DNA of 44,279 bases from Zetaproteobacteria bacterium (GTDB lineage Bacteria; Pseudomonadota; Zetaproteobacteria; Mariprofundales; Mariprofundaceae), in contig QILF01000012.1 of assembly GCA_003233235.1 (NCBI GenBank), positions 1 through 44,279 of the forward strand, written 5' to 3'. The translations under genes were made by a program, and so were the position numbers. Under the pieces are notes generated by a model, which worked only from the letters and a program-made list of their open reading frames with translations, was not told where the DNA came from and did no database searches. Shown piece after piece: positions 12,424-42,058 of the stretch; position 1 is the first letter of the stretch, and each line of letters starts with the position of its first letter.

Positions 12424-12825
12424 ATGCACTTTACCATAAAAACACTGACCGTTGTCCTTTGTACGTTTATTTCCCTTACAGCATGTGATCAAAATAAAAA
12501 CACACCTTCATCCCAAGGCATCATATCATCCAGCCTTCAAGCATTACAACGTGACTCGCAACCGGGAGCGGCACTGGTCAAGAAAAAATGCATATCATGC
12601 CACTATCTTAATCGCCATCTGACCAAGGTCGGCCCCTCACTAAAAGGTATATTCGGCCATGCGCCTTCAATATCCGGCGTTCCGTTCGCAATATGGAACG
12701 AAAAAACACTGGATCAGTGGTTAGCAAACCCTACCGGAATCAAACCGAATACTCTCATGGCTATGCCCGGCATCAAATCCAAGAAACAGCGAAAAGCCAT
12801 CATCGACTACCTGAAACAAATCTGA
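12424..12825 (+). CDS. Class I c-type cytochrome, probable lipoprotein
   Basis: 133 aa with a lipobox (FISLTAC), the heme motif CISCH, and a distal Met region (PNTLMAMPG), as in cytochrome c2/c552-like proteins. Confidence 0.8.
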   Translation: MHFTIKTLTVVLCTFISLTACDQNKNTPSSQGIISSSLQALQRDSQPGAALVKKKCISCHYLNRHLTKVGPSLKGIFGHAPSISGVPFAIWNEKTLDQWLANPTGIKPNTLMAMPGIKSKKQRKAIIDYLKQI

Positions 12826-12847: not shown

Positions 12848-13447
12848 ATGAAGTCCCAAAATAAATCTTTTCCCTTGCTACTTGTCGGCCTTATTTTTTC
12901 TTTGGGACTCATCATCTTCGGCGTTTACAACTTGAACAAAATGCCGACCAGCCCTTACCCTAATATCCATGGGATATTCTCGCTGCATAGTGTCGATGGC
13001 TCGGTTACGTCCAATGATCTTCTAGGTAAGGTTGCTGTGATCTATTTTGGTTATACCCATTGCCCCGATACCTGCCCTGGCACACTGCTCAGAATCGGCG
13101 CAGCACTCAAGTTACTGAATCCTGAGGAGATTCTCAAAGTTGCCCCGTTATTTATTACTACAGATCCGGAGCGTGACAGTCCTGCATTAATGGCAAAATA
13201 CGCCCGCCATTTTGATTCACATATTCTAGGTTTAAGCGGCAGTTCAGAAGAGATTAAGGCTGCCACAAAATCTTTTTTGAGCGGTTACAAACAAGAAGCT
13301 CCAGACAAAGATGGTAACTATGTCGTCAGCCATGCGTCCTACATTATCATTGTCCGCCCGGACGGCAGCATCGGAGAATTCATGCCGCACAGCAGTAGGC
13401 CAGAAGATATAGCCGCAACCATTCGTCACTGGCTGCGCTGGACCTGA
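12848..13447 (+). CDS. SCO1/SenC family copper chaperone (thioredoxin fold)
   Basis: 199 aa with an N-terminal TM anchor, the CxxxC motif in YTHCPDTCP, and a downstream His (VVSHASY). Confidence 0.85.
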   Translation: MKSQNKSFPLLLVGLIFSLGLIIFGVYNLNKMPTSPYPNIHGIFSLHSVDGSVTSNDLLGKVAVIYFGYTHCPDTCPGTLLRIGAALKLLNPEEILKVAPLFITTDPERDSPALMAKYARHFDSHILGLSGSSEEIKAATKSFLSGYKQEAPDKDGNYVVSHASYIIIVRPDGSIGEFMPHSSRPEDIAATIRHWLRWT

Positions 13448-13487
13448 CCCGGCGTAAACACAGGACAGGTGAATGTACTGACTTCGC

Positions 13488-14837
13488 TCATTTGAACAAT
13501 CCGGCCATCGCATCCGGCTGATAGCGGGTTTTATCCACTTTCATATAAATCACTCCCTCTTCCGGAATCATGCTCACCTCCTCTACGCCGCTAAGTTGGC
13601 GTATATTTGTCATCAACGTATCGGCTTGCGCCTGATTCAGGTTAGCGATGGAAACCATCTGCCGGGTCAGATTCATGGGAAATTGCATGCCACGGCAGAG
13701 CAGCAGCCAGACCAGCGCCAGAACGGCGCTGACCATGAACACGCCGCTGACCCCGAATGCGCCGTATATCACGCCACCGGAAATGCCACCGCAAAATACG
13801 CCGAAAAACTGAGAAGTGGAGTAGGCCCCCATGGCCGTCCCCTTGTCTGCTGCGGGCGCCAAACGTGATACCAGCGATGGCAGGCTGGCCTCCAGCACAT
13901 TGAAAGCGACAAAATAGATCAACATGCCGACGACCAATCCGGCCATGGTATGGTGCGTCATACTCATCAACACTTCTGCGACCATCAGCGCCGCCACGCA
14001 TGCGGTAAAAATCTGTTTCATCCTGCCACGTTTCTCAGCCACGATAATCAGGGGAATCATGCCAAGCACGGAGGCCAGCAGGATAGGCAGGTAAAACCAG
14101 ACTTGCGATGACGTCGGCAGATGTAAGTCATTGCGTAGCGCAAAGGGAAGCGCAATAAATGTAGAGGTCATCATCGTATGCAGCAGAAAGATGCCTGCAT
14201 CGAGCCGCAGTAACTGGCGATTTGCCAATACCTGTTTCAATTTCATCGGCTCGGCTTCAACATCGCTGTGTTTTGAACTATGTTGCGGATTCGGCACGCC
14301 GAGATAAAGGATGATAATACCCAGCACACCAAACACCGATGCAAGCCAGAACAGGCCATCCACACCGATATAGCTATCCAGCAGCGGACCAAGTACCAAA
14401 GCGAGCGTAAACGAAGCACCGATCCCCATGCCGAACACGGCCATGGCCTTGGTGCGCTGCGATTCGTCGGTCAAATCGGCAATCAGGGCCATCACAGCCG
14501 CAGCAATCGCGCCTGACCCCTGTAACAATCGTCCTGCAATGACACCGCCCACCGAGTCCGACATAGCCGCCACCGCGCCGCCCAGCACGAACAACAGCAA
14601 TCCGGCGGCAATCACCGGTTTGCGTCCGAAACGATCCGACATCATACCGAATGGAATCTGCAATAAAGCCATCGTCAGGCCATAACCGCCGAGCGCCAGT
14701 CCGGTTAGCAGCGGTGTGCTGCCACTCAAATTTTCAGCATACAGGGCAAAAACGGGCAGAATCATGAATAGGCCCAGCATGCGCAGGCAGTAGATACCGG
14801 CCAGTGAAAATACGCCCCGGCGTTCGATGGCCTGCAT
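13488..14837 (-). CDS. MFS transporter
   Basis: I place the start at ATG 14837 (MQAIERRGVFSLAGIY...), which overlaps the ctaA stop by 1 nt (TGATG). The protein has about 12 TM helices and the MFS loop motif MSDRFGRKP. Confidence 0.8.
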   Translation of the reverse strand: MQAIERRGVFSLAGIYCLRMLGLFMILPVFALYAENLSGSTPLLTGLALGGYGLTMALLQIPFGMMSDRFGRKPVIAAGLLLFVLGGAVAAMSDSVGGVIAGRLLQGSGAIAAAVMALIADLTDESQRTKAMAVFGMGIGASFTLALVLGPLLDSYIGVDGLFWLASVFGVLGIIILYLGVPNPQHSSKHSDVEAEPMKLKQVLANRQLLRLDAGIFLLHTMMTSTFIALPFALRNDLHLPTSSQVWFYLPILLASVLGMIPLIIVAEKRGRMKQIFTACVAALMVAEVLMSMTHHTMAGLVVGMLIYFVAFNVLEASLPSLVSRLAPAADKGTAMGAYSTSQFFGVFCGGISGGVIYGAFGVSGVFMVSAVLALVWLLLCRGMQFPMNLTRQMVSIANLNQAQADTLMTNIRQLSGVEEVSMIPEEGVIYMKVDKTRYQPDAMAGLFK

Positions 14838-15865
14838 CAGGATTCCCGCAATGCGTGATTGGTGAACAGCGCAAGCGTAAACAGCAGCATCGCACCGCCC
14901 TGATGGCTCACCGCCAGCCATGTTGGAACTACCAATATCAGAGTGGCAATACCCAGCGAAACCTGTAGCGCGGCCATGCCCAGCAGGAGATTAAAAGCCA
15001 GTCGCGCCCGCGCCGAGAGTTCAAAACCGCGCGCATACCACCACAAACCGGCAGTACTCAGGATCGTTATTTCGGCCAATAATCGATGATCAAACTGAAC
15101 CGCTGCAATATTTTCAAAGAAATTCAAATAGAACGACTTAAGCATGGCGTAACCCTCGGGAATAAACTGACCATCCATCAAAGGGAATGTATTGTAGGCG
15201 AAGCCGGCCTTCAGGCCTGCCACCATGCCACCGGCGACCACGGTCAACGCAATCAGGCTGGTTAAACCCAGCGCCAAACGTCTGAGTGGCCTGATATCAT
15301 ACAACGAGGCGCCTTTGGCCGGAAACAGCAGCCCCATCGCCACCCATAAAATATATCCGAAAATAATGAATGCCGCCGACAAATGAGCGGTCAGCCGATA
15401 CTGACTGACATGCGGATTATCAAAACCGCTGCTGACCATATACCAGCCCAGCACGCCCTGCATACCACCCAATATGAACATAATGACCAGTTTGGGACGA
15501 AACGGTTTCGCTACTTTCCCGGCCATCAGAAAATAGATAAACGGCAACAAAAAGAGCAATCCAATCAATCGCCCCCAGACACGGTGAATATATTCGAGCA
15601 TAAAAATACGCTTATAAGCTTCCACATCCATGCCGGGATTTAACTCATAAAATTCAGGAATCTTTTTGTAGTGTTCGAAGGAATCCAGCCACTGCACCTG
15701 ATTCAGGGGTGGAATCCACCCCATCAACGGATCCCAGGTCATCATCGAAAGACCGGAATGTGTTAAACGGGTAGCGCCGCCAATCACCAGCATAACAAAA
15801 ATGGCCGCACACACACACAATAACCAGATGGCAATCTGTCTGTTGTTGCGGATTTCATCAGGCAT
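14837..15865 (-). CDS. ctaA: Heme A synthase (COX15/CtaA family)
   Basis: The N-terminal region (IAIWLLCVCAAIFVMLVIGGATRLTHSGLSM, with EYIHRVWGR) is COX15-like, and it contains several conserved His in TM helices. I place the start at ATG 15865 with SD gaggag. It overlaps the upstream gene's stop by 8 nt. Confidence 0.85.
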   Translation of the reverse strand: MPDEIRNNRQIAIWLLCVCAAIFVMLVIGGATRLTHSGLSMMTWDPLMGWIPPLNQVQWLDSFEHYKKIPEFYELNPGMDVEAYKRIFMLEYIHRVWGRLIGLLFLLPFIYFLMAGKVAKPFRPKLVIMFILGGMQGVLGWYMVSSGFDNPHVSQYRLTAHLSAAFIIFGYILWVAMGLLFPAKGASLYDIRPLRRLALGLTSLIALTVVAGGMVAGLKAGFAYNTFPLMDGQFIPEGYAMLKSFYLNFFENIAAVQFDHRLLAEITILSTAGLWWYARGFELSARARLAFNLLLGMAALQVSLGIATLILVVPTWLAVSHQGGAMLLFTLALFTNHALRES

Positions 15866-17225
15866 CGGCTTTCTCCTCACCCCTGCCCCTGAACATCACT
15901 GGCAACACAACAACAGCAAACAGGATCCCACTCAGCACCGCAATCACGCCACCAAGGCCAACCAGATCCTGCGGCGTCAGCCATGCATGCACGCCGATAT
16001 CCTGCGTCGTACCCACGACTTTGCGTTTCATACCATGGCCACCACCCCATGCTAAACCAATGATGTGGATCATTTGGCCGATGGCATAAGCATAAACCTG
16101 AATTCTGGCCCATTTCAGATTGGGTGTCGCAAAGCCGAAACGGGGCAGCCAGTAGTAGGTCATGGCCATAAAAGCCATGGTCACCGATACAATCGAGCCA
16201 TGATAATGGGCTGTAATCAGCGTACTGCTTTCGCCAATAAACAGACCCAGCGTTCCACCTGTGGCAAACAATGCAATCGACAACAGCATGGCGGCGTACA
16301 AATGCCGATCTTCCAGTGCAGGAGCACTGCCTCTAAATGCCACCCACATAACGCTCAAACCAATCACAAACGGGGCAACGCCATTGCCATCGCGCATCAA
16401 CCATACAAACCAGCGGGCAAAACCGACATCCCCCACCTGATGCTGGATAAAGGGAATCACGGCAAGCAATACCGATACAAGACTGATGGCGAATACGGCC
16501 ATCACAAGCCGGGGATGAACAGACGGTTTAAGACCACAGACTTCTGCCAACCATAACCAGCAGACGCACAACAATGCCGTATGCGTAAACTGGAGAATGT
16601 GACCACTAGCCCAGAACAACGGCTCATAATAAGCGCGATGTTCCAGTCCGGTCGGCATCTGAGCAAAACTCCATAACAAAGCCAGCAGCGCGGCTAAGGC
16701 AGCTACAGCAGCACTCCAAACGCCAAAACGCATCGCCCCCTCATGATTTGAGTCAAAAACGCGCGCCACGGGGATGGCTACAATACTGCGCAGTACCAGC
16801 AACAGGATACCACCGCCAAACACAATCAACCCCTTGATAAAATAATGATTTTCCAGCATCGGCACATAATTGTTGGTGAGCGGGTTGGCCGCCCCCGTTA
16901 ATGGTGAAATACCAACAAGTATGCCGCCCGCCACCACCAGCGTCAGCGCAATCCATCCGCTTTTAACAGCACGTGATGTTGAATTTAAACTCCAGAATAC
17001 CCCGGCAATCGCCAGCAGCCACCACAGCACCGTAAAATCGACATGCAACACCAGCGCCGTATAGAAAAAATCCTTCCATGGCATTTCATAACTGGTACGC
17101 GCCAGCGCCAACAACAACGGATAAATACCGGAAGCCAGCAGAAATCCTACCGCCACGCATAACCAGCCAATAGCCAAGCGCTGCTGAGGTGTATCAGCAA
17201 GTGATAATGTATATTTATTGCTCAT
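15858..17225 (-). CDS. Divergent heme-copper oxidase subunit-I-like membrane protein (non-canonical active-site ligands)
   Basis: 455 aa with about 12 TM helices. His61 (LVLHVDF), His209 (LFWASGHILQF), His262 (IQHQV) and His340/342 (AHYHGS...YYWLP) have the spacing of HCO subunit I and NorB ligands. However, the helix-VII HH pair is QHQ here, and the position of the cross-linked Tyr is Phe. Confidence 0.55.
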   Translation of the reverse strand: MSNKYTLSLADTPQQRLAIGWLCVAVGFLLASGIYPLLLALARTSYEMPWKDFFYTALVLHVDFTVLWWLLAIAGVFWSLNSTSRAVKSGWIALTLVVAGGILVGISPLTGAANPLTNNYVPMLENHYFIKGLIVFGGGILLLVLRSIVAIPVARVFDSNHEGAMRFGVWSAAVAALAALLALLWSFAQMPTGLEHRAYYEPLFWASGHILQFTHTALLCVCWLWLAEVCGLKPSVHPRLVMAVFAISLVSVLLAVIPFIQHQVGDVGFARWFVWLMRDGNGVAPFVIGLSVMWVAFRGSAPALEDRHLYAAMLLSIALFATGGTLGLFIGESSTLITAHYHGSIVSVTMAFMAMTYYWLPRFGFATPNLKWARIQVYAYAIGQMIHIIGLAWGGGHGMKRKVVGTTQDIGVHAWLTPQDLVGLGGVIAVLSGILFAVVVLPVMFRGRGEEKADA

Positions 17226-17371
17226 AGATACTTCCTTGAAGTAATTTTTTCGACGCGAAGTTTAGCACCGGTGCTTTCCCATCGCAGTAGATTTATCTCT
17301 CGTGCATCTTAAACGACATGCCTGAACATCCTGCCGTTTTCCACAGGCTTGATTTGTGCGACCATTCCGCC

Positions 17372-17962
17372 ATGCCATATAATCGCACCATACGCATCCT
17401 TCACTTTACGATTGTCCTGTCCGTACTGCTGCAACTGCTAGGGGAAACACTGATCGGTCTGCCCGAACCCAATCACCCCAGGCACGGTATGGATACGCTT
17501 ATTGTCGGCATCCATGAAACCATCGGCATCATCGCACTTATCCTTGTATGCACCTATCTGGCAATGGTTGTGGATGAGGCGGCTGGTCGCAACCGGTTAT
17601 TTCCTTGGCTCAGCGCATCGGGGCGTAGCGGCCTCTGGTCGGAAATAGGCCGGGATATGCCGGATTGGCTGCGTGGTAAACTGCCGCCGCCCGAAGAAAA
17701 CCACACCATTGCCGGTACAATACACGGGCTGGGTATTTCTCTGGCGCTGTTGATGGGGCTAACCGGCATGATGATATTTCTCGGCACTGGGCCGCATGGG
17801 GAAATGCCGCCCGATATCAAAGCCATTTGGCAATACCATAGCATCATGGGTACCATGATGTGGGTTTTCGTGGCCGGACATGCAGGCATGGCGATAGTGC
17901 ATGAAATCAAGGGCCACAAGGTATTACGGGAAATGTTTAAATTAGGGAAAAGCCTTGGTTAA
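17372..17962 (+). CDS. Cytochrome b561 family protein (CybB-like diheme membrane cytochrome), paralog 1
   Basis: I place the start at ATG 17372 (MPYNRTIRILHF...), giving 196 aa, the same length as the paralog. It has 4 TM helices with conserved His (ILHF, GIHE, GTIHGLG, AGHAGMAIVH) and the shared motif RLFPWL. Confidence 0.75.
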   Translation: MPYNRTIRILHFTIVLSVLLQLLGETLIGLPEPNHPRHGMDTLIVGIHETIGIIALILVCTYLAMVVDEAAGRNRLFPWLSASGRSGLWSEIGRDMPDWLRGKLPPPEENHTIAGTIHGLGISLALLMGLTGMMIFLGTGPHGEMPPDIKAIWQYHSIMGTMMWVFVAGHAGMAIVHEIKGHKVLREMFKLGKSLG

Positions 17963-18044
17963 TCCGCAACATCAGTTAATTCACAATATCAGCATGCGAT
18001 GGGTCCGAAACAAGAATCCACTCCGTTCATGGAATAATTAACCG

Positions 18045-18638
18045 ATGCGATTTAATCGGCTCACACGTTTTCTTCATCTGTGCATCATGCTTGGCGTGCT
18101 CATACAACTAATCAGTTCGCAATTGATGCAGGTGCCAAAACCCGGCGAAACAGTATCTGCCGTTGAAGCCATATTCATGGAACTGCATGAATGGAACGGC
18201 TTTATAGTGCTGGCTATTGTCGCCTTTTATCTCATGTCTTTGACAGATGACCGCGACGACTGGAAGCGGCTGTTTCCATGGCTAACCGTAAACGGCTGCA
18301 AGGGTTTATGGCAGGAAATCCGTTTTGATATGCCCGGCTGGTTGAAGGGACGCCTGAAAAAACCTGCCGAAGCGCACTATATTGCCGGAACCGTGCATAG
18401 CTTGGGTATACTGCTTTTAATTGCTCTCGGCTCGACCGGTATCATGATTTTTATGGGACTGGAATCCAGCGGGGAGATGAATGACGAGATCAAACTGCTG
18501 CGGGCGCTGCACGAAAATTTAGCCACACTGCTTTGGATTTATTTGTTCGGGCATATTGGCATGACCATCATACATCAGCTTAAGGGTCACAGCGTATTGA
18601 AGGATATGTTCAAGCTCAAAGAAGACAATCCGGAGTAG
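18045..18638 (+). CDS. Cytochrome b561 family protein, paralog 2 (tandem duplicate)
   Basis: 197 aa, colinear with paralog 1 at roughly 40% identity by eye. Shared segments are FLHL, ELHEW, RLFPWL, AGTVHSLG and FGHIGMTIIH. Confidence 0.75.
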   Translation: MRFNRLTRFLHLCIMLGVLIQLISSQLMQVPKPGETVSAVEAIFMELHEWNGFIVLAIVAFYLMSLTDDRDDWKRLFPWLTVNGCKGLWQEIRFDMPGWLKGRLKKPAEAHYIAGTVHSLGILLLIALGSTGIMIFMGLESSGEMNDEIKLLRALHENLATLLWIYLFGHIGMTIIHQLKGHSVLKDMFKLKEDNPE

Positions 18639-18662
18639 GTACTGGCCGGAAACAACGCCCCC

Positions 18663-19211
18663 TCACTTGTTTACAAGCGCAGAATCAGCAGCAGTCACAA
18701 TGATGGTGCCAATCATATCATAGTGGCCTGTGCCGCAAAAATCGCCACAATGCATGTTGAAACGCCCAATCTTATGCGGAGAAAATGAGACCGTGGTGAA
18801 CTGGCCCAGTCTGATCCGGTTCATCAGTTTCAACTCCTGCACAACCAGCGCATGCGGCATATCCTGAGACGTCAGGTGTAAGCGGTAAGGCTGATCCTGC
18901 TCCAGTTCCAAAATATAATCGCCCCATGTATAATTACGTCCAAGCAGATAAATATCGCTATCGGCAGGTGGATGCACAATCGCCAGCTTCCCCTCATGAC
19001 GAACCGTATAGCTGGCTACCATATGCTTGAGTTTTCCCTTGAATGCTTCCAACTGGACACGGGTAATTTTCTTTTTTGCCACCGTATAGTCCGGCCTGCT
19101 GCTGATTGTTTTCATGGTGAACGAGCCGACCACCAGAGTGGCCAGTATTGCGATCGCAAGAAAAAGCCCCGCATTGACCCGCTTCTTTTCAGGTACTGGA
19201 TTATTTCCCAT
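18663..19211 (-). CDS. Orphan CuA-type cupredoxin protein, cytochrome oxidase subunit-II-like (single TM, ba3-like architecture)
   Basis: 182 aa with one N-terminal TM helix (AGLFLAIAILATLVVGSF). The full CuA ligand pattern is present: LTSQDMPHAL ... HCGDFCGTGHYDM, that is H...C-x3-C-x3-H-x2-M. Confidence 0.7.
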   Translation of the reverse strand: MGNNPVPEKKRVNAGLFLAIAILATLVVGSFTMKTISSRPDYTVAKKKITRVQLEAFKGKLKHMVASYTVRHEGKLAIVHPPADSDIYLLGRNYTWGDYILELEQDQPYRLHLTSQDMPHALVVQELKLMNRIRLGQFTTVSFSPHKIGRFNMHCGDFCGTGHYDMIGTIIVTAADSALVNK

Positions 19212-19343
19212 TGAGAACCTCAGTGATACGACTTATGCAGCAGAACTACACATGTCATCCGGTATGCCTTTACCCGCCTAGATAAGTGAAATATCATGGC
19301 GCAAATAGTATCCTATCAAGACTGAACCATACAGGAATCCTTT

Positions 19344-19898
19344 ATGCCAGAAAAACAGCCTCAACATTTTTCCAATACATTTCTCGGAATCACCCTTGTC
19401 GGACTGCTCATCACCCTCTTTGGCGGAGCCGGAGTGATGTATTATTTGGGTGTATTCACAACCGTTGAGGTTACCCAGCAGACAGCCCCTTCTTATCGTA
19501 TTGCATATCTGTTTCATACCGGCCCCTATAACGAAATCGAGCCTTCCATCAAGCAGGCGGGGGAATATCTGAATAAGGCGGGAATTAAAACGGACACGCC
19601 ATGCGCCATACTGCTGGATGACACCGGTTCGGTGGCCGCTGCCAAGCGCCGCAGCAAGGTCGGATATCTAGTCAAGCGCGGTGATTTTATACCCGTCCAA
19701 TTAGATGAGGAAATTTTTCCGCCACGGAACGTGGTTCGGGTTGTCTTTTCTGGCGGCACCCTACTCGGATCCTACAAGGCCTACGAAGGAATGAAGGCAT
19801 GGGCGAAAGACCATCATTTCACACTTGTGCTGCCGGCTATCGAGATTTATCACCCAGACGGTGGAACCGAATATCAGCTAGGCATCATCCGCCCATGA
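19344..19898 (+). CDS. Membrane-anchored GyrI-like / SOUL-like small-molecule-binding domain protein
   Basis: 184 aa with an N-terminal TM helix followed by a GyrI-like pattern: YRIAYLFHTGPYNEI, ...AILLDD..., and EIYHPDGGTEYQLGI. Confidence 0.45.
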   Translation: MPEKQPQHFSNTFLGITLVGLLITLFGGAGVMYYLGVFTTVEVTQQTAPSYRIAYLFHTGPYNEIEPSIKQAGEYLNKAGIKTDTPCAILLDDTGSVAAAKRRSKVGYLVKRGDFIPVQLDEEIFPPRNVVRVVFSGGTLLGSYKAYEGMKAWAKDHHFTLVLPAIEIYHPDGGTEYQLGIIRP

Positions 19899-20470: not shown

Positions 20471-21367
20471 TTAATGCATCGCTGAACTGCGTTTGACCTT
20501 CATGTCGTAAGGCATGTCCTTCCACAAGGTTTCCGCTCTGCTTTTCGCTTCCATCAACTGCTGCCTAGAAATTTTACCGCTCATCACCTTGAGATTGTCT
20601 TTGGCATATCGGTCACCAAGCGTGGTCGCCAGCCAGAACCATATGGTCGCTTCCACATAATCCTGCTCGCCGCCGTCACCAAAGGCATACATCCTGCCGA
20701 GATAAAACTGCGCCTTCGGATGCCCCTGTAGGGCCGACTTGCGTAGCCAGCCCCTTGCTTGCGAAAAATTCTTTTTCACACCTTCACCCCGCGCATACAT
20801 CAAACCCAGCTGATATTGTGCCTGCCTGTTCCCCTGCTCCGCAGCCTGTTGAAACAGCGCCAAGGCTTCTGCTGAATGACCTTTCCCAAGTTGCGCCATA
20901 GCCCGTTCGGACACGCCCTGAGCAATATTCTGCACGGGGCGCATATCACGCACATCAGCAATTATTTCCAAATCCTTTCCCGATGCGAAATGCAGCGCCA
21001 TACGGGTCGTTTGTCCCTGATGCAGTTCCCGCTTCAAGCCGAGCAGCATGATGTGCATTCCGAAGGGCTCAAGTTTGACAACCCCATTGGCGGGAATCGT
21101 TAGCGTCGATATCTTTTCCATACGCGTTTGACCGCCCTGTCGAATCACCGTATGAAACTCCGCAGTATCGGCCACGTCGATGGTCAAGCCAACCATGACA
21201 GCATCCTTATCACCATCATTATGCAAGTTCATATAAACTGCAGCGGTATCGGCCACCGATGGTGGCATACGCACCCATGCATGTGTCACGCTCACTTCAG
21301 CGTATGCGTAACCGACAAATAACAGGCTTGCAGTACACATAGCCAAGCCATTTACAATGTTTCTCAA
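20471..21367 (-). CDS. Periplasmic copper chaperone PCu(A)C domain fused to Sel1-like repeats
   Basis: 298 aa with signal peptide ...LLFVGYAYA|E. There is an exact H-x10-M-x21-H-x-M PCuAC motif (FHTVIRQGGQTRM...GMHIM). The C-terminal half has Sel1/TPR-like repeats (AQYQLGLMYARGEGVKKNFSQARGWLRKSALQGHPKAQFYLGRMYAFGDG). A TTG start is preceded by gagg. Confidence 0.8.
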   Translation of the reverse strand: MRNIVNGLAMCTASLLFVGYAYAEVSVTHAWVRMPPSVADTAAVYMNLHNDGDKDAVMVGLTIDVADTAEFHTVIRQGGQTRMEKISTLTIPANGVVKLEPFGMHIMLLGLKRELHQGQTTRMALHFASGKDLEIIADVRDMRPVQNIAQGVSERAMAQLGKGHSAEALALFQQAAEQGNRQAQYQLGLMYARGEGVKKNFSQARGWLRKSALQGHPKAQFYLGRMYAFGDGGEQDYVEATIWFWLATTLGDRYAKDNLKVMSGKISRQQLMEAKSRAETLWKDMPYDMKVKRSSAMH

Positions 21368-21435: not shown

Positions 21436-22329
21436 TTACAAGGAATCAATCACCATCACGCCGAACAACAAAATCAGATAGATGATGGAATAAGCGAAAA
21501 CACGCATATCACATGCCCGTTCCGAAAACAGGAAGCGGATAGCGATGAAAAGAAAAATCGCGCCTAACAACAGCGATACGGCAAGATAATATATGCCGGA
21601 CATCGCATAGACATAAGGCAATGCAACAACCGGAATCAACGCAAACGTGTAGAGAGCGATACGAATCTTTGTCGCTTTCACACCACAGGCAACGGGAATC
21701 ACCGGCACCTTTGCACGTGCATAATCCGAGCGGTACTTCAATGCCAAGCTCAAAGCATGCGGCTGTTGCCAGACCACCATAATGGCAAATAAAATCCACG
21801 CCGGAGCCGCCAGTTCACCAGTAGCAGCAGCATAACCAACCATCGGCGGTACCGCACCGGCAATGCCGCCAAACTGATTAGCCCACGGCGACGTACGTTT
21901 TAACCACATGGTATAAACACCCACATAACCAATCACGCCGACAGCCGTCACCTCTGCCGCCAGAAGATTCACTGTCAAGCCCATCAACATCAACGATGGG
22001 AGGATCAACAACAAACCGACAAACAAAATAGTATGTTCTGAGGCCCGGCCACATGCGAGGGGGCGCATGCGAGTGCGCATCATCAACCTGTCAATATCAC
22101 GATCATAATAATTATTGAGCATACAGGAACCAGCGGTTGCCAACCCCAATGTCAAAAATGTCCAGAAAATCATATGCCAATCCGGTAACACACCGTGACT
22201 GCCGAAATAAATACCTGTCAGGGCAGCCACAAGGGTAAGACCGACGATACCCGGCTTGGCAAGCTCTACCAAATCTTTTAGGAAGGTTCTTGAATCGCTA
22301 TTCGCAAATTCGATGACTTTATCTATCAT
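21436..22329 (-). CDS. ctaB: Protoheme IX farnesyltransferase (heme O synthase)
   Basis: UbiA-family polytopic protein with NNYYDRDIDRLMMRT (the NxxxDxxxD-type motif). I place the start at ATG 22329 with SD ggagga; the ORF track starts at TTG 22356. Confidence 0.88.
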   Translation of the reverse strand: MIDKVIEFANSDSRTFLKDLVELAKPGIVGLTLVAALTGIYFGSHGVLPDWHMIFWTFLTLGLATAGSCMLNNYYDRDIDRLMMRTRMRPLACGRASEHTILFVGLLLILPSLMLMGLTVNLLAAEVTAVGVIGYVGVYTMWLKRTSPWANQFGGIAGAVPPMVGYAAATGELAAPAWILFAIMVVWQQPHALSLALKYRSDYARAKVPVIPVACGVKATKIRIALYTFALIPVVALPYVYAMSGIYYLAVSLLLGAIFLFIAIRFLFSERACDMRVFAYSIIYLILLFGVMVIDSL

Positions 22330-22417
22330 ACCATTTCCTCCGCTATAAATATTCAATCCGGCTCAGATTGTACTGCTCTGCCGCATCTCCCCACACAACA
22401 GGATTGTATGAAGTAAT

Positions 22418-22495: not shown

Positions 22496-24163
22496 TTAGC
22501 TATTCGAAGCGACAGTTATGTATGTCGGCTTCGGATTGTCGATGTAGTTGTACGGATGCCAATCTTCGACAACTTCCACCGGAGACGGGAAGTTACCCTG
22601 TCCGGCAATAAGCGCGGCCGATGTCCATTCCAGCGATTGCGATCCCCACGGATTCTGCGACGACTTCTTGCCCTTGAGCATACCGTGAATCCATGCTACC
22701 AGCATCAGCAATACGGCCAGGAAGGTGATGTAAGCGCCAATCGTGGACCAGTACTGCGCGTTGACGATGGTGGGATTATCGGCAAACTGCTGATAATCCA
22801 TGTAGCGGCGCGGCATACCCTCAATACCGGCGAAATACAACGGTGCCATCACCACATTCATGCCAATAAAGAAGGTAATGCCGGAGAGCTTGGTTAAGAA
22901 CTCATTGCAGATACGCCCGGTCAGTTTCGGGAACCAGTAAAACACGGCCCCAAAAGTGGCCATGGTACCCGCCACCGCCATCACATAGTGGAAATGGCTC
23001 ATAACGACATAAGAATCCGAAATGCCGTAGTCGATCGAAGACAGAGCGTTCGGAATGCCGGTCAAACCACCGAAAATCAGCATCACCCAAGCACCCAGAG
23101 CCCAGATCATCGGGCCGGAATAGCGGATAGCGCCCTTGTACAGCGTACCCACCAGACTCAGCATCAACAGGCCGAACGGTAGTGAAATCAGCAATGTCGT
23201 AAATGACTGTAATACACGCAGCCAGTCCGGCAGCCCCGCCACGAAGGCGTGATGCACCCATACATCGCCACCAGCCGGAATAAAGGCCAGCACGGCAAAG
23301 ACCGTCGCCTTGTAACTGAACACCATATTCTTGGCTGACGCCGAGAATATTTCAAAAATGATGCCCATGAACGGTAGCAGAATCACGTACACGGCCGGAT
23401 GCGAATAGAACCAGAACAGGTTCTGATACAACAGCACATCACCGCCCGTTTCCGGATTGTAAAACCCGAATCCGAGATAACGATCCAGCGACAATAGCAA
23501 TACCGATGCAGCCAGCACCGGCACGAAGATCAACTGAATGATATTAGCAGTAAATACACACCAGGCCGTCATCGGCATCTGGAACCAACCCATGCCCTTG
23601 CAGCGCATGAAAGCTACGGTACAAGCCAGATTTACCGCGCCGAACACGGATGACATGCCAAGCACAATGACCACCAGTGAATACAACGCCGTGTTGCCTG
23701 CCGCATCCGAGGTGGAATATGGCGGATAGCCGGTCCACATGCCGTTGAAGTGATCTGGAATCACTAAATTGGCTAGGGCCAGCAGAATGCCGCTCCACAG
23801 CAGCCACACACTCATGGCATTCACACGCGGGAATGCCATATCCTTGGCTCCGATCATGATGGGTACAGCATAGTTGGCCACAAAACCCAACAGTGCCGGA
23901 ATCTGGAAGCCCAGAATCATCACCGCACCGTGCATGGTCAACCATAGATTATAGACGTTGCCATCGCCGGTAATGTCCGGCCCAATACTGCCCAATTCGA
24001 TACGCATCAACATGGCGGCGAGGCCGGCCACGGCAAAAGATGCGATAGAACCAATCAGATACCAGACGCCGATAACCTTGTGATCCAGTGTAAACAACCA
24101 TTCTTTAACTGTTTTTGGCCAACCGGGTTTACCGTTTGGCTCATGTCCCATGATTACGCCCAT
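22496..24163 (-). CDS. ctaD: Heme-copper oxidase subunit I (A-family-like, YS/A2-type motif, K-channel Lys absent)
   Basis: 555 aa with all six canonical His: LTMHGAV, WFYSHPAVY, VHHAF and SHFHYV. The Tyr of HPAVY is present, and the D-channel entrance KDMAFPRVN is present. The SD aggaggg lies in the end of coxII. Confidence 0.88.
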   Translation of the reverse strand: MGVIMGHEPNGKPGWPKTVKEWLFTLDHKVIGVWYLIGSIASFAVAGLAAMLMRIELGSIGPDITGDGNVYNLWLTMHGAVMILGFQIPALLGFVANYAVPIMIGAKDMAFPRVNAMSVWLLWSGILLALANLVIPDHFNGMWTGYPPYSTSDAAGNTALYSLVVIVLGMSSVFGAVNLACTVAFMRCKGMGWFQMPMTAWCVFTANIIQLIFVPVLAASVLLLSLDRYLGFGFYNPETGGDVLLYQNLFWFYSHPAVYVILLPFMGIIFEIFSASAKNMVFSYKATVFAVLAFIPAGGDVWVHHAFVAGLPDWLRVLQSFTTLLISLPFGLLMLSLVGTLYKGAIRYSGPMIWALGAWVMLIFGGLTGIPNALSSIDYGISDSYVVMSHFHYVMAVAGTMATFGAVFYWFPKLTGRICNEFLTKLSGITFFIGMNVVMAPLYFAGIEGMPRRYMDYQQFADNPTIVNAQYWSTIGAYITFLAVLLMLVAWIHGMLKGKKSSQNPWGSQSLEWTSAALIAGQGNFPSPVEVVEDWHPYNYIDNPKPTYITVASNS

Positions 24164-24166
24164 GAT

Positions 24167-24994
24167 TTATCCCTCCTGTCCTTTATTGATTTTACTGGCC
24201 GCGATATTTTTAATCGCCTTGCCAACCGTTGTACTGGCAATCCGATGTCCCGACTCCGCCTTGGCATCCGCGAGGGCACTGACCATCCATGCATCGTAAT
24301 TGGCCTGTTTCATCACGATAAGCTTGCCGTACATCCTAGAGTGATTCGCGCCGCAGTATTCACGGCAGGTAATCACCGATTCGCCAACCTTGACCGGCAT
24401 GATCCATTCCCAAGTCACACGGCCCGGCATCACATCCTCGGTCACGTGGTAACCGTTCAGGTAATGGGAATGTATGACATCGTCACTGGTCATGCGAAAC
24501 ACGACCGGCTTGCCGACCGGCACGCGCAGTTCGTTGTCCGTATCCACGCCGTTGCCGTAGTCATAATTCCAGTTCCACATGGAGGCGGTTACCTTGATGG
24601 TCTGAGCATGGGCCGGCACTTCGCGCATCTGGTTGTGCAGATCGAAGGCCTTGACAAACAGAAACAGGTCATCCCCCAGAAACAGCATGCAGGGGAGCAC
24701 GACCCAGCCGATGATGGCCTGTGCCGAAAGCTTGGGCGATTTACCAACCTGATTATGCTCTGTCCTTCTGTACCTGAATAGAAAAAATAGAGCTATGGCA
24801 AAGTAAATTGCGCCGATAATCGTGATGTCCCACATCACCTCCGACCACATTTCATTCCAGTGGGCTTGCGGCGTCAAACCCTCATAATTATTTTTGGTCG
24901 CTATCTCCATCTGGAATGCATAGGCCAGCGTGGGAATCAAAGGCAGTGCAAGCAATGCTCCCAACGCTTTATAGCTTAACGATTTTATTTTCAT
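24167..24994 (-). CDS. ctaC: Heme-copper oxidase subunit II with CuA centre
   Basis: 275 aa with a signal/TM segment plus a second TM helix. CuA ligands are TSDDVIHSH ... CREYCGANHSRM. No c-type heme motif is present. Confidence 0.88.
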   Translation of the reverse strand: MKIKSLSYKALGALLALPLIPTLAYAFQMEIATKNNYEGLTPQAHWNEMWSEVMWDITIIGAIYFAIALFFLFRYRRTEHNQVGKSPKLSAQAIIGWVVLPCMLFLGDDLFLFVKAFDLHNQMREVPAHAQTIKVTASMWNWNYDYGNGVDTDNELRVPVGKPVVFRMTSDDVIHSHYLNGYHVTEDVMPGRVTWEWIMPVKVGESVITCREYCGANHSRMYGKLIVMKQANYDAWMVSALADAKAESGHRIASTTVGKAIKNIAASKINKGQEG

Positions 24995-25067
24995 CTCTTT
25001 CCCTCCTGTATTTCTATGTTTCTAATATTTAGCAAACAAGCATACTATTTTTATTTTCTTATTACCG

Positions 25068-25976
25068 TCATACAGTCAATTTCTCATTTTCCAATCGTTC
25101 TCTCTTGCGTTTGGTAATGGTAAAACCGCCGACTATTAGTGTCATGCCAGCCACCAGTCCCCCAAGGGCCACAAACAGGGGGATATTGAGCTTGTATTTT
25201 CCATCCTTATAGTTGTAGCTGTGGCACGCAGCCACTACAAAATCAATGATATTCACCGGAGAAATCTCTCCGCCCATCGCCTTGGTAATCGCCAACTCCA
25301 CATCATCCGCATCCACCTTTCCGGCATAGAGATAGCGTGTGATCTGACCTGTAGGCGAAAGTACGGTGTACACATTCGGATGCAAAAAGATACGATCCCT
25401 TGGTGACCAAAAAAACTTGAAGCCAATCGAATTGGCAAGACGGTCAATATCTTTCCGATTATCCATCGTTGCCATGAACCACCCTTGCGGCAACTGCGCA
25501 AACCCCATCTTCTTCTGGAATTTATGCATCGTTGCCGGCGTATCATGCGGATCAAAGGATACGGTCAAAACATTGTAGTCTTTACCCAACTTCCAGCGGT
25601 CTACACCTTTCAGAGTATTGGCCAGCGTGTGGTTAATCACCGAGCAGGCCCCGTCGCAAGTGTAGTATGAGAGTACCAGAATCAGCGGCTTATCGGGCAA
25701 ATCACCCAACCTGAAACTGTTTCCATTTGCATCCTTCAGCATATAATCCCCGGCAACCTTCCCACCCAGGAAATCTTTCTCCTTGATTTGAAATATCTTG
25801 AGATCAATCTGCGATTCCGTAGTTACATTTCCGTAGGCTGCCTGCGCAAACTCCGGAAACAGGGCCACACCACTCCCCATAACAGCAAACAGGCAAGCCA
25901 GCGCCGGAAACAGCCGAAGCTGATTCCGGCGCGGCACAGAACTGCTCCGCATGAAAGATATGAGTGAATTACACAT
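25068..25976 (-). CDS. SCO/SenC-family copper chaperone with an extra C-terminal TM segment
   Basis: It has CxxxC in YYTCDGACSV within a thioredoxin-like core, an N-terminal signal/anchor (LFPALACLFAVMGSGVALF), and a C-terminal TM helix (PLFVALGGLVAGMTLIVGGF) followed by a basic tail. The start is uncertain: 25976 or 25952. The track start at 26033 overlaps cox3. Confidence 0.75.
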   Translation of the reverse strand: MCNSLISFMRSSSVPRRNQLRLFPALACLFAVMGSGVALFPEFAQAAYGNVTTESQIDLKIFQIKEKDFLGGKVAGDYMLKDANGNSFRLGDLPDKPLILVLSYYTCDGACSVINHTLANTLKGVDRWKLGKDYNVLTVSFDPHDTPATMHKFQKKMGFAQLPQGWFMATMDNRKDIDRLANSIGFKFFWSPRDRIFLHPNVYTVLSPTGQITRYLYAGKVDADDVELAITKAMGGEISPVNIIDFVVAACHSYNYKDGKYKLNIPLFVALGGLVAGMTLIVGGFTITKRKRERLENEKLTV

Positions 25977-25995
25977 AGCTACAGACTGTCCATGC

Positions 25996-26751
25996 TTACC
26001 AGTAGTAAACCTGCAACAGCACCCAGAGGCCAAGTGAATTCACGAAATGGACATACATTGTCATGGCGCGCGTGTAGGAAAAACTCATCCTACCCTTAAG
26101 GGCACTCGGCAGGCAGGTCAACATCACCAGCAGGCCAATCACGATATGAGCCATATGAATACCGGTAAGGCCGTAAAGTGCGGTTGCGTAGGCATTCACA
26201 CCGATGGTAAAGCCCTCACTTGCCAGATGGTTCCAGTCGGAAATAACCATCACCATGAAGACCCCCCAAATCACAATGGATAACAATACCATTTTGACAA
26301 AACCGGATGAATCGCCCTCCATCTCCCGCTTACGCGCCAGACCGATTGTGATACTGGAAACAACCAGAATAATGGTTGCAATCAACGGTATTGACGCATC
26401 AATCGTTGGCGTATCCGCAGGCGGCCATACTGGCGCACCCAGACGCATAACCCAGTAACCGGCCAGAATAGCGCCAATGGTCATAATCTCGGTACCGATG
26501 AACATGAACATGGCCGACGGACTCCAGCCTTCATCATCAATTACACCAATCGTTTCACCAGCCCAGCCGAGACCTCCGGCTATACCCAAAGCAGCACCAA
26601 TGACTAAACAGACCAGTGCAGCTGTTGGCTGTTCGTAGTTAAATTGCAGCATGAATGCCCATGGCAAAAACAATCCCGTACCGAATCCCACCATCATGGG
26701 AAACGGACTGGTATGCCAATGGGCAGTATAATGTTTAATTTCTTCGCTCAT
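25996..26751 (-). CDS. ctaE: Cytochrome oxidase subunit III family protein
   Basis: 251 aa with about 7 TM helices. LTGIHMAHIVIGLL parallels the GFHGLHVIIG motif, and the C-terminal VHFVNSLGLWVLLQVYYW parallels WHFVDVVWLFLY. Confidence 0.75.
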   Translation of the reverse strand: MSEEIKHYTAHWHTSPFPMMVGFGTGLFLPWAFMLQFNYEQPTAALVCLVIGAALGIAGGLGWAGETIGVIDDEGWSPSAMFMFIGTEIMTIGAILAGYWVMRLGAPVWPPADTPTIDASIPLIATIILVVSSITIGLARKREMEGDSSGFVKMVLLSIVIWGVFMVMVISDWNHLASEGFTIGVNAYATALYGLTGIHMAHIVIGLLVMLTCLPSALKGRMSFSYTRAMTMYVHFVNSLGLWVLLQVYYW

Positions 26752-26768
26752 TTTATACCCTCCTCCTT

Positions 26769-27152
26769 TTATTTCAGGCTTTTCAGAAAGGCAATGACAG
26801 CATCTGCGTCCGCGCCTGTGACATGTTGCGGTTGCATCTTGGTTTTCGCCTTCTTGTTGCCAGTCAGCTTCTTGACCGCCTTCTTGCTATTGTCAATCCA
26901 TGCACGCAGATTCTCTTCGTTCCACGTCCATGCATCACCTTTAATATATTTGGTAAATTTATATTTGAAACCAGGCTGCGTACCGGCCTTGCGACCAAAA
27001 ACACCCTTCAGCCCCGGACCAACGTTGTTTTTCTCGGTAAATTTATGGCAAGCCTTACATTTCACCTCTGGCCCGGCATAAGCATCTGATACTGGCAACA
27101 TCGAAAACACCAATACGACAGCACTAATCATTAATAATAGTTTTCTTATCAC
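26769..27152 (-). CDS. Class I c-type cytochrome (likely electron donor to the oxidase)
   Basis: 127 aa with signal peptide ...PVSDAYA|G and the heme motif CKACH. A GTG start is preceded by ggaggg. It is the first gene of the operon. Confidence 0.8.
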   Translation of the reverse strand: MIRKLLLMISAVVLVFSMLPVSDAYAGPEVKCKACHKFTEKNNVGPGLKGVFGRKAGTQPGFKYKFTKYIKGDAWTWNEENLRAWIDNSKKAVKKLTGNKKAKTKMQPQHVTGADADAVIAFLKSLK

Positions 27153-27362: not shown

Positions 27363-28535
27363 TCAAGCCGCCCGCACAGGACGCACAGAAAATTGCACCC
27401 GAACCTCCAGCCCGCCCTGCGGCAGGTTGCTCAAAACCAACCTTCCTCCATAACGATTAACCGTCTCCTGAACAATGGACAGCCCCATACCATGTCCACC
27501 ACCGGTATCACTGCTTTGCCTGCCACGATCATCTTCGATACGATAAAACCGCTCGGTAACACGCGGCAAATGCTTCGGATCAATGCCAGGACCGCTATCA
27601 ATAACGCGTAAAACAGGCTGGCCATCAACACACTGCATACACAACGATACCCTGCCGCCTTGCGGCGTGTGGCGTATGCCATTCTCCATCACATTGGTCA
27701 GCAAACGATACAAATCAGCTCCATCCATTGGGAAAACACAACAATCATCATCGACGTTTGCTTCGAATCGAACGCCGTTCTTTTTCGCCACAGGCCGAAG
27801 CAACTGTTCCAGCTCATGCACCACCGCCACGGCATCGCAATGCACATCCTCGGGAACCACCCCTTCACCAAGCTGCTTGAGAGTTAAGATGGATTCGATA
27901 AGCTGATTCAGGCGTTTCGATTCCTGCGCAATCGTTTGTGCGGCTTCATCGCGTAGCGCCTTGTTGTCGCCAAAACTCTGAATACTGCGTGCGTAACCGA
28001 GAATCGAAGTCAGCGGGGTTTTCAAGTCGTGCATCAGGTCGCGCATCAATTGGTCGCGCTGCGTCTCCAGTTCGCGCTGGCGACTAATATCCAGACACAG
28101 CAGCAATGCCTCCCCGTTGCCCAACGGAGCCAAACGCACCGCCAGCACAAAATCGCCAACGTAGATATCCGGAATCTCGCAAGGCTCAGGCATTTGCATC
28201 AACGCCTTGCGCATCGCCTTATTCCATTTTGGTTTACGATAAAACACCGTCATCGGCTGTGGCATATCCAGCGAGCGAGGCAAGCGAAAAAGACGTCGGG
28301 CCTGTTCGTTCATAGTCAGAACTTCCGCATCTTTATTCAACCTGATAATGGCTTCGTTGACCGTGGAAAACAAGGCATCAAGGCGATTGCTGCGTTCATG
28401 CAACTGCTCATCCAGCGCCTGCATCTCGGAAGTGACCCGCCACTGCTCACGGGCCAGCTTACGCAAACGATTACGCTGCCAGAAAACAAGTGAAAGAAGG
28501 AAAAATGACGATATCAGCCACCATAGGTCATTCAT
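27363..28535 (-). CDS. Sensor histidine kinase (PhoR-like architecture: one N-terminal TM, cytoplasmic PAS-like region, HisKA, HATPase)
   Basis: 390 aa with H-box LMHDLKTPLTSILGYA, N-box LTNVMENGIRHT, and G-boxes VIDSGPGI and GGHGMGLSIV. Confidence 0.85.
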   Translation of the reverse strand: MNDLWWLISSFFLLSLVFWQRNRLRKLAREQWRVTSEMQALDEQLHERSNRLDALFSTVNEAIIRLNKDAEVLTMNEQARRLFRLPRSLDMPQPMTVFYRKPKWNKAMRKALMQMPEPCEIPDIYVGDFVLAVRLAPLGNGEALLLCLDISRQRELETQRDQLMRDLMHDLKTPLTSILGYARSIQSFGDNKALRDEAAQTIAQESKRLNQLIESILTLKQLGEGVVPEDVHCDAVAVVHELEQLLRPVAKKNGVRFEANVDDDCCVFPMDGADLYRLLTNVMENGIRHTPQGGRVSLCMQCVDGQPVLRVIDSGPGIDPKHLPRVTERFYRIEDDRGRQSSDTGGGHGMGLSIVQETVNRYGGRLVLSNLPQGGLEVRVQFSVRPVRAA

Positions 28536-29242: not shown

Positions 29243-29322
29243 GAATTCCACATGACAGGATGACAAGCCCCGCGCCGGGTCGCGCTTTTATTCACACGCT
29301 TCGGCTTTTCCACAGCGGACAT

Positions 29323-29841
29323 TCAGGCAATGGAAAGACTATTCAAGCTGCGCGTATAATGGCGTAGCGCCGAATATTCGATTTCCAGCTTCAACGACAT
29401 ACGTGACAGCAGGCGAAACATGAATTGCAAGAGCTGAAATCCGAGCCGGGGATCTTCCAGCGTAATTAAATCAAAATAAGAACGGCTCAGACCGAGTAGC
29501 GTCAAATCGTCCAGCACTTTAACCGTAGCCGAATGCTGGCGATCATCGAGAAAAGAAAATAAACCGAACACATCGCCTGCCTGCAATGTTGAAAAAACAT
29601 TGCCCGATAAATCGCTCACCGATACGTTGCCTTCCAGTATCATATAAACACAACGCTCCGATGCGCTTCCGGCACTATATAGAACCTCTTCTCTTTTATA
29701 TCGCACCTCTTCGAAACATGAAAAGACCTCCATCGCATCGTGTACGGCAAGCTCCTGCCCGATGGGCAAGCTACGAAAGCGCATAAAATTGGGATTAGCG
29801 GATACCGATGCGAATAAGGTCGTGAGATTGCCTTGCGCCAT
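29323..29841 (-). CDS. Stand-alone cyclic-nucleotide-binding (cNMP) domain protein, no DNA-binding domain
   Basis: 172 aa. The segment YMILEGNVSV...AGDVFGLFSFLDDRQHSATVKVLDD matches the cNMP beta-roll and phosphate-binding-cassette pattern. No HTH follows it. Confidence 0.65.
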   Translation of the reverse strand: MAQGNLTTLFASVSANPNFMRFRSLPIGQELAVHDAMEVFSCFEEVRYKREEVLYSAGSASERCVYMILEGNVSVSDLSGNVFSTLQAGDVFGLFSFLDDRQHSATVKVLDDLTLLGLSRSYFDLITLEDPRLGFQLLQFMFRLLSRMSLKLEIEYSALRHYTRSLNSLSIA

Positions 29842-42044: not shown

Positions 42045-42058
42045 CTCCGACAAATAAA

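Follow-up and report, generated by a model that had tools for sequence, protein, structure and literature searches.

The 44,279-nucleotide stretch of a Mariprofundaceae genome (Zetaproteobacteria; contig QILF01000012.1) that was analysed here, called the window in the following, encodes a protein of 455 amino acids which is a true homologue of subunit I of the haem-copper oxidases (HCOs). As judged from its conserved residues, the family of this COX1-like protein keeps the two haem sites of a subunit I, but has no CuB/FeB centre. Its genes recur next to genes for haem synthesis and haem-A enzymes, and in one subfamily next to genes for c-type haem ligation. We therefore give about even chances to the proposal that the COX1-like protein is a haem-binding and probably redox-active accessory factor in haem-cofactor maturation, i.e. 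in haem A synthesis or insertion, and consider such a maturation helper more likely than a new NO or oxygen reductase.

Since searches of the PDB are insufficient in this case (the single sequence found no match there, and the best match of the family profile, Aquifex ba3 subunit I, reached only E 0.25), homology to HCO subunit I rests on Pfam, profile-profile comparison and fold. The protein matches the Pfam family COX1 (PF00115) end to end, with 57.4 bits against a cut-off of 34.8 and E 1.5e-15. Comparison of its profile with subunit I of eNOR (eNOR I) by hhalign gave a probability of 99.7% and E 8e-27 over 427 columns. An AlphaFold2 model computed from a 22-sequence alignment (predicted local distance difference test, pLDDT, 82; predicted template modelling score, pTM, 0.87) shows 12 transmembrane helices, and Foldseek finds A-, B- and C-type oxidases as well as cNOR to match this model (probability 1.00, TM-scores 0.63-0.75), with subunit I of Thermus thermophilus ba3 among the matching folds. 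All three approaches agree with the original prediction, which had recognized a subunit-I homologue by aligning histidine positions by eye. The closest catalytic relative by profile comparison is the B-family-related eNOR I (Rhodothermus marinus): the family profile aligns with eNOR I at E 1e-26 over 424 columns, versus E 6e-8 over 182 columns with the A-type COX1 that is also encoded in the window. Because of this preference, and because a CuA cupredoxin encoded nearby is of the ba3/eNOR subunit II type, both the COX1-like protein and this zetaproteobacterial CuA protein appear to descend from the B-family/eNOR lineage, even though the enzyme encoded nearby is of the A type.

The histidines of the window protein that matter here are found at positions 61, 209, 262, 340 and 342; helix VII reads Q261-H262-Q263, and F213 is located four residues after H209. 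In the profile alignment with eNOR I, H61 corresponds to the low-spin haem histidine, H209 to the helix-VI metal histidine, Q261/H262 to the helix-VII His-His pair and H340/H342 to the two helix-X histidines, with R401-K402 aligning with the invariant R445-R446 of eNOR I, i.e. the arginine pair that anchors the haem propionates. The haem ligands, H61 and H342 for the low-spin and H340 for the high-spin haem, match the ligand positions of Aquifex ba3 as well. Conservation was read from an alignment (A1) of relatives from Zetaproteobacteria, Nitrospinae and Gammaproteobacteria and from a diversity alignment of 137 representatives of 50%-identity clusters obtained by exhaustive profile search. 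Among these 137, the only conserved histidines are H61 (136), H209 (all), H340 (135) and H342 (135), and R401-K402 is conserved in 132-133. The H262 column holds Y in 53 relatives, H in 14, F in 13, L in 9 and other residues in the rest, the Q261 column shows no residue preference, and in 104 of 138 sequences histidine is absent from the ten residues round the helix-VII His-His position. The column of F213, where the cross-linked tyrosine of oxygen reductases would be found, contains F in 104 and Y in 12 of the 137, and those with Y do not have the His-His pair. The family signature comprises H61, N119-Y120-x-P122, E201, W205, G208-H209-x-x-Q212, M277, S316, A-H340-Y-H342-G, Q376 and R401-K402; T274 is also conserved in the family and is V in the window protein. 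From the alignment and from known oxidase structures, T274 and M277 may lie beside the vacant CuB position.

The original prediction was thus right in describing a non-canonical active site without the tyrosine, with F213 at H+4 and Q261-H262 in place of the helix-VII pair. Its more specific proposal of a Gln-for-His exchange, with 'Q-H-Q' as a defined site, had to be given up, as this helix-VII position is variable and both histidines are lost in the family; H262 is peculiar to the lineage of the window, and 'Q-H-Q' is thus a lineage accident rather than a family feature. A residual metal site at H262 that covaries with the presence of the CuA gene was also considered and rejected, since relatives bearing Y at this position have a CuA gene, too.

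It is the loss of both helix-VII histidines across the family that speaks against a CuB/FeB centre. Of the three histidines required for such a centre H209 alone is conserved, the active-site tyrosine required in A-, B- and C-type oxygen reductases is replaced (F213), and the three-ligand non-haem metal site of HCO-type nitric oxide reductases (NORs) is reduced to a single conserved histidine. With the CuB/FeB site and the catalytic tyrosine gone, the COX1-like protein, on the evidence of its residues, cannot reduce O2 or NO by a haem-copper mechanism. By contrast, the axial histidines and the propionate-binding pair are conserved, from which we infer that two haems are still bound in the canonical sites. 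The shared features of eNOR I and the window protein are the haem ligands, the helix-VI motif G-H-x-x-Q, the Y/P motif, the Arg pair and the lack of the tyrosine, but eNOR I has the His-His pair and a metal centre, comprises approximately 570 amino acids and has been shown to reduce NO (PMC11214002). A full CuB site and the His-Tyr cross-link likewise set Thermus thermophilus ba3, an O2-reducing enzyme, apart from the COX1-like protein.

These differences also bear on the suggestion in the original prediction of an NO-reductase-type HCO, which is not supported, given the absence of a CuB/FeB site. In the NOR families known or proposed (cNOR, qNOR, bNOR, eNOR, sNOR, gNOR and nNOR) the non-haem metal has three protein ligands, with or without Glu, every proposed family retains at least two histidines plus a replacement ligand, and gNOR, with one His replaced by Asp, was the first HCO family found to replace any active-site histidine (PMC11214002). 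gNOR and the NO dismutase-type HCOs are thus likewise HCO homologues with canonical active-site residues replaced; gNOR, however, changes one ligand and keeps the metal site, whereas the COX1-like family loses two, with no conserved substitute. Because two ligands are lost where even gNOR alters just one, the family stands outside every described oxidase or NOR family.

The family is large. The profile search yielded 1,700 clusters (50% identity) at E<=1e-3 and 787 at E<=1e-30, and when one genome per species was scanned, at least 553 species had a relative. Those listed include Gallionella, Ferrigenium, Nitrosomonadales, Burkholderiales, Acidiferrobacteraceae, Thiogranum and Nitrospirae, with Noviherbaspirillum, Quisquiliibacterium and Pelomicrobium as cultured carriers among the matches listed. 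The closest homologues of the window protein (62-98% identity) belong nearly all to Mariprofundaceae; between phyla, identity is 41-45% and the signature remains unchanged. Loss of the catalytic metal ligands would also fit a decaying, non-functional duplicate of oxidase subunit I, but we regard this as scarcely credible: approximately 20 positions are near-invariant over at least 137 50%-identity clusters from several phyla, the ORFs are intact in at least those 553 species, the position in the operon is kept and the protein has been detected in Ferrigenium. The strong purifying selection that this conservation indicates rules out a pseudogene.

The family has also been noticed before. A preprint on Ferrigenium gives an orthologue, whose function is unknown, the label 'eNOR scaffold protein' and calls its gene in eNOR operons 'a very common observation'; in Ferrigenium straubiae this gene (IMG 2878407321, KEGG K02274, 'hypothetical') is transcribed and its product was detected in the proteome (bioRxiv 10.64898/2026.01.22.701106). 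The scaffold gene occupies the same position as the homologue of the window gene in Ca. Ferrigenium bremense (locus L048 of the comparison below), and the window protein is 41-45% identical, over approximately 445 residues and with a common signature, to the products of the genes at the scaffold position in loci L018-L083, including L048. Full-length similarity and conserved residues thus put the COX1-like protein into the 'eNOR scaffold protein' family, which is already named but uncharacterised. The remark in the original prediction that nothing of this kind was recognized as described thus no longer stands for the family as such, which received its label in 2026, but does stand for its function, and our literature search for a subunit-I-like assembly factor found nothing beyond this label. 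KEGG mislabels the Ferrigenium scaffold protein as cytochrome c oxidase subunit I, and HCO classifiers drop sequences without six histidines (PMC3084760). Because of the latter, the family has fallen between annotation and classification.

What these proteins might do is best approached from the company of their genes, which was compared in 84 loci (cited by L numbers) collected by tblastn with the window proteins and the proteins of one gammaproteobacterial locus. In the window, the COX1-like gene, ctaA for haem A synthase and a gene for a major facilitator superfamily (MFS) transporter form one unit, with the MFS gene as the last. The first two are translationally coupled and overlap by 23 nucleotides if ctaA starts at GTG 15880 and by eight if it starts at ATG 15865, the latter being the overlap that had originally been predicted together with the following MFS gene. 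Of 15 zetaproteobacterial loci, all have ctaA directly downstream on the same strand and 14 have the MFS gene downstream. Where enough flanking sequence is available, ctaB for haem O synthase is found within 7.5 kb upstream (8 of 8 loci), and in L006 it is the immediate upstream gene. A subunit I of the eNOR type was found neither in the window nor in the examined flanks of these 15 loci, in which the other subunit I is of the A type. The cytochrome c and SCO1/SenC gene pair, which is convergent with the MFS gene in the window, keeps its position in zetaproteobacterial loci. One of the loci with zetaproteobacterial gene order (L010, CAYRLE010000008.1; COX1-like gene 74% identical) is labelled 'uncultured Gammaproteobacteria', and this bin is probably misclassified.

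Outside Zetaproteobacteria, the constant partners are ctaB, ctaA and SCO1 together with eNOR or an A-type oxidase, or ResB-CcsA. Nitrospinae and Nitrospirae show the order COX3-SCO1-COX2-COX1-ctaB-COX1like(-ctaA), and approximately 60 Beta- and Gammaproteobacteria show eNOR II-eNOR I-ctaB-SCO1-[cytochrome b/4Fe-4S/FlpD]-p167-COX1like, with G-H-S-S-Q-Q, the motif of eNOR, and a complete His-His pair in the adjacent subunit I. When non-zetaproteobacterial loci with enough flanking sequence are counted, the genes upstream include ctaB in 43 of 48, an eNOR II-type CuA gene in 38 of 45 and one for cytochrome b/Fe-S in 46 of 57. The gene of one distant, unfused family member is divergent from an adjacent ctaA, and its vicinity is free of oxidase genes. 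The Ferrigenium operon consists of eNOR II, eNOR I, ctaB, sco1, cytochrome b/Fe-S, p167 and the scaffold gene; the window, in contrast, is without eNOR I, p167 and cytochrome b/Fe-S, but features the coupling to ctaA and the MFS gene, a distinct CuA protein, b561 cytochromes and an A-type oxidase. The universal theme in the context of the family is haem O/A synthesis beside a haem-A enzyme.

Gene fusions extend this theme. One protein (P0237, in L084) carries a C-terminal UbiA/CtaB domain and is encoded in an operon of subunit II, COX1, a 48-amino-acid ORF and the fusion gene, and another single case (P0122) has an N-terminal cytochrome b domain. At least seven family representatives, which retain the full family signature, end in a TPR domain. 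Since a 13th transmembrane helix follows helix XII in these forms, their TPR domain should be periplasmic, as in CcmI/CycH. In all four loci with upstream sequence the TPR-form gene directly adjoins the stop codon of a gene for CcsA (PF01578) or overlaps with it; ResB comes before in three of the four, and in one a gene of the thioredoxin family (AhpC-TSA/Redoxin) follows. Such a layout is that of a System II cytochrome c maturation operon. In L088, the TPR-fused gene also adjoins genes for multihaem cytochromes.

The adjacency of the family to haem-processing genes is what suggests a helper of haem handling, and a role in maturation would be the simplest account covering all contexts, because the family recurs by two different haem-A enzymes and by genes for c-type haem ligation, is found fused to CtaB and has a CcmI-like TPR form. 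The two client enzymes accompanied, eNOR and the A-type oxidase, both use haem A (PMC11214002). In mechanistic terms, a paralogue of a B-family/eNOR-type subunit I would hold a bis-His low-spin haem (H61/H342) and a high-spin haem on H340. Together with CtaB and CtaA it could hold haem O or haem A and pass it on to the apo-subunit I, or it could supply or buffer redox equivalents during the loading of the neighbouring haem-A enzyme. The client would likely be the A-type oxidase in the window organism and eNOR in Beta- and Gammaproteobacteria. In Zetaproteobacteria, the ba3-like CuA subunit and, for the majority of genomes, the b561 cytochromes might serve as the protein's own partners for electron entry. 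Possible functional analogues are Surf1/Shy1 and CcmF/CcmI, i.e. membrane proteins with transient haem binding (Surf1) or with a bound b haem (PMC9145763), with genes adjoining those for haem synthesis or ligation and, in the case of CcmI, with a periplasmic TPR domain like that of the TPR-fused subfamily. They have no relation in sequence or fold to the COX1-like protein, so that the proposed likeness is one of role alone.

Part of the same evidence can be read in terms of CtaA itself, with the COX1-like protein as a missing redox or O2-chemistry partner that provides electrons or O2 activation for the conversion of haem O to haem A at very low O2 in microaerophiles and aerobic denitrifiers. 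The tight coupling to ctaA and ctaB would fit this idea, as would neighbouring cytochrome b/Fe-S proteins that resemble an electron-donor chain (with FAD and NADH domains in Ferrigenium) and the fact that carriers are microaerophilic iron oxidisers and eNOR denitrifiers, in which the need of CtaA for O2 is an acknowledged puzzle. CtaA of Bacillus or Rhodobacter, however, functions without such a partner, the ResB-CcsA context involves no oxygenation step, and outside Zetaproteobacteria ctaA is frequently non-adjacent. We therefore consider a role restricted to CtaA improbable. The scarcity of ctaA (within 10 kb in just 9 of 29 non-zetaproteobacterial loci with full flanks) is also one of three observations that weigh against haem maturation in general.

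The other two concern electron transfer and the haem pocket. In Zetaproteobacteria, the CuA subunit sits where a catalytic subunit II would be expected, and b-type cytochromes accompany the COX1-like gene in most lineages; together this looks like a respiratory enzyme. Moreover, the distal pocket (W205, H209, Q212 and M277) and the Y120/P122 motif common with eNOR I are strongly conserved, which would fit a haem site for ligand binding or catalysis, too. The CuA gene is present upstream in 12 of the 15 zetaproteobacterial loci (L006, L008 and L046 are without it). Its 182-amino-acid product has one N-terminal hydrophobic segment and resembles subunit II of Thermus ba3, with one transmembrane segment and a CuA cupredoxin domain. 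This subunit is also its closest match in the PDB (profile E 4e-23), and the ligands H120, C155, C159, H163 and M166 (H...C-x3-C-x3-H-x2-M) are invariant in an alignment of its relatives (A4), in line with the ba3-like architecture and complete ligand set originally predicted. In the window, two oppositely oriented b561 genes separate the CuA gene from the COX1-like gene, but in L012, L014 and L016 it is found directly upstream and co-directional, as in a subunit II-subunit I pair. The CuA protein is thus a probable partner of the COX1-like protein in Zetaproteobacteria. The b561 genes, one of which is adjacent and divergent in 9 of the 15 loci, are indeed paralogues, as had been predicted: their products are 44% identical to each other and match PF01292 (Prokaryotic cytochrome b561) with 76.6 and 85.7 bits against a cut-off of 30.1. 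Next to the COX1-like gene in non-zetaproteobacterial loci, the tblastn comparison never found b561 or MFS genes. The synteny of the five-gene module of the original prediction is therefore largely kept within Zetaproteobacteria but not beyond, and the b561/CuA/MFS arrangement is a zetaproteobacterial variant. A GyrI-like gene divergent from the CuA gene keeps this place in most zetaproteobacterial loci.

Taken at face value, such an arrangement could belong to a new respiratory or detoxifying oxidoreductase with the COX1-like protein as the catalytic subunit, in which electrons flow from CuA/b561 via the low-spin haem to NO, O2, H2O2 or nitrite at a haem-only site, with H209 and Q212 on the distal side. 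The subunit-II-like gene position in the three loci just mentioned, the selection on the CuA ligands, the cytochrome b partners or fusions in most lineages and the near-invariant distal pocket with its eNOR I-like Y120/P122 motif are all compatible with catalysis, and tyrosine loss serves as a marker of HCOs that do not reduce O2 (PMC11214002). Yet two of the three metal ligands are gone family-wide, and every NOR or oxygen reductase characterised or proposed so far lacks one at most. In addition, the operons of Beta- and Gammaproteobacteria already encode a complete eNOR I and II, with the COX1-like protein being left without a CuA partner of its own, and neither the ResB-CcsA operons nor the CtaB fusion would be explained. 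A catalytic role thus seems possible but unlikely to us.

What can be retained for the maturation helper is that the persistence of b-type cytochromes beside the family and the selection on the zetaproteobacterial CuA protein suggest a redox-active role rather than that of a passive scaffold. Carried further, the family might represent a class of two-haem, CuB-less and redox-active HCOs without a respiratory function, which would act as partners of CtaA in electron supply or O2 chemistry, hand over haem A to apo-subunit I, serve System II in their TPR form and, in Zetaproteobacteria, be wired by CuA/b561 to the periplasmic electron pool. In its entirety, this is a speculative and rather unlikely proposal.

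Several further genes accompany the family outside Zetaproteobacteria. p167 (in L003, L019, L025, L048 and others) encodes a protein of approximately 167 amino acids, is located immediately upstream of the COX1-like gene and often overlaps it. The protein has one transmembrane helix and invariant H46, C54, C75, R70, R77 and R79 (alignment A3) and matches no Pfam family; the idea that it is a degenerate cupredoxin equivalent to the CuA protein of the window was rejected at an hhalign probability of 1.9%. Fusion proteins of 513-520 amino acids, which combine the N-terminal part of a bc1-type cytochrome b with 4Fe-4S and FlpD/MvhD-like domains, are encoded on either side of the COX1-like gene where eNOR operons contain it, and there are often two copies, with second copies located downstream in Gallionella; one of the cytochrome b/Fe-S proteins of Ferrigenium features FAD and NADH domains (bioRxiv 10.64898/2026.01.22.701106). 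In several Gammaproteobacteria, a gene just downstream of the COX1-like gene encodes a DUF420 protein, i.e. a member of the family of CtaM, an oxidase assembly factor of Bacillota. Finally, ORFs of 45-48 amino acids occur between the catalytic COX1 or ctaB gene and the COX1-like gene in two unrelated loci (L084 and L002).

The map of the window (table 1) is derived from an ORF listing and scans with Pfam and NCBIfam, and all genes described in the original prediction are present where it had placed them. The window is an unremarkable piece of a Mariprofundaceae chromosome, with further genes for housekeeping functions such as ammonium transporters, RF2, an ABC-F ATPase, phosphate transport and polyphosphate kinase; its G+C content is 0.42 at positions 42001-44000 and approximately 0.50 elsewhere. 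In the A-type oxidase cluster, a Pfam scan restricted to the larger ORFs of the window found no match to Surf1 or Cox11, which, as far as this window goes, is a point in favour of a maturation helper. Genes for a histidine kinase, an OmpR-type response regulator and a cNMP-binding protein directly upstream of this operon may regulate it. The fusion of a PCuAC copper chaperone to Sel1/TPR repeats is an arrangement kept in several zetaproteobacterial loci. A promoter and terminator scan of positions 13300-19500 was not used: it gave 11 promoters versus 7.5 +/- 3.2 in shuffled sequence and 14 terminators versus 7.5 +/- 2.6, which is no convincing excess, and the terminator-like matches were discarded as they fall within coding rather than intergenic sequence.

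Table 1. Features of the window and of selected loci of the comparison (positions refer to the window unless a locus is given).
Feature	Position	Strand	Evidence or remark
Cytochrome c	12424-12825	+	Pfam
SCO1/SenC	12848-13447	+	Pfam
MFS transporter	13488-14921	-	PF07690, 178 bits; weak YajR-type C-terminal match
ctaA/COX15 haem A synthase	14837-15880	-	PF02628, 336 bits
COX1-like HCO subunit-I paralogue, 455 amino acids	15858-17225	-	PF00115, 12 transmembrane helices
Cytochrome b561 paralogue 1	17318-17962	+	PF01292, E 2.6e-21; divergent from COX1-like gene
Cytochrome b561 paralogue 2	18045-18638	+	PF01292, E 4.4e-24
CuA cupredoxin, 182 amino acids, single transmembrane helix, ba3/eNOR subunit-II type	18663-19211	-	Ligand alignment, profile search
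GyrI-like small-molecule-binding gene	19344-19898	+	
PCuAC copper chaperone fused to Sel1 repeats	20471-21367	-	PF04314 and PF08238
ctaB-type haem O synthase (UbiA family)	21436-22356	-	PF01040, 183 bits
A-type cytochrome c oxidase COX1	22496-24163	-	Pfam; canonical HPAVY and HH motifs
A-type COX2	24167-24994	-	Pfam
SCO1-like, 321 amino acids, between COX3 and COX2	25068-26033	-	Pfam
COX3	25996-26751	-	Pfam
Whole A-type cluster COX1-COX2-SCO1-like-COX3-cytochrome c	22496-27152	-	
Histidine kinase, OmpR-type response regulator, cNMP-binding protein	27363-29841	-	
COX1-like::UbiA fusion	L084:2629-4875		
Small ORFs	L084:2473-2619; L002:7788-7925		
TPR-fused COX1-like genes	L087:4233-6239; L088:8001-10136; L092:2686-4653; L093:8001-10079		
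p167	L003:7496-7999		
Cytochrome b/4Fe-4S/FlpD fusions	L003:5941-7503; L001:3441-4982		
DUF420 genes	L001:7576-8001; L003:9710-10150		

The route by which haem A gets from CtaA into subunit I is unknown and the source of reductant for bacterial CtaA is an open question (2022 review, PMC9145763). As a large and conserved family with the fold of an oxidase, both haem sites, no copper and ties to either ctaB/ctaA or ResB-CcsA, the COX1-like proteins are concrete and testable candidates for the exit of haem A from CtaA and its entry into subunit I as well as for the supply of reductant to CtaA. At the same time, their current annotation makes terminal oxidases look more numerous than they are in iron oxidisers, denitrifiers and metagenomes. 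Overall, the gene in the window is the zetaproteobacterial variant of a widespread, named and uncharacterised family, the context of which points to haem maturation, and its wiring to CuA and b561 proteins in Zetaproteobacteria hints that oxidase maturation at very low O2 may be linked with the electron pool of the periplasm.

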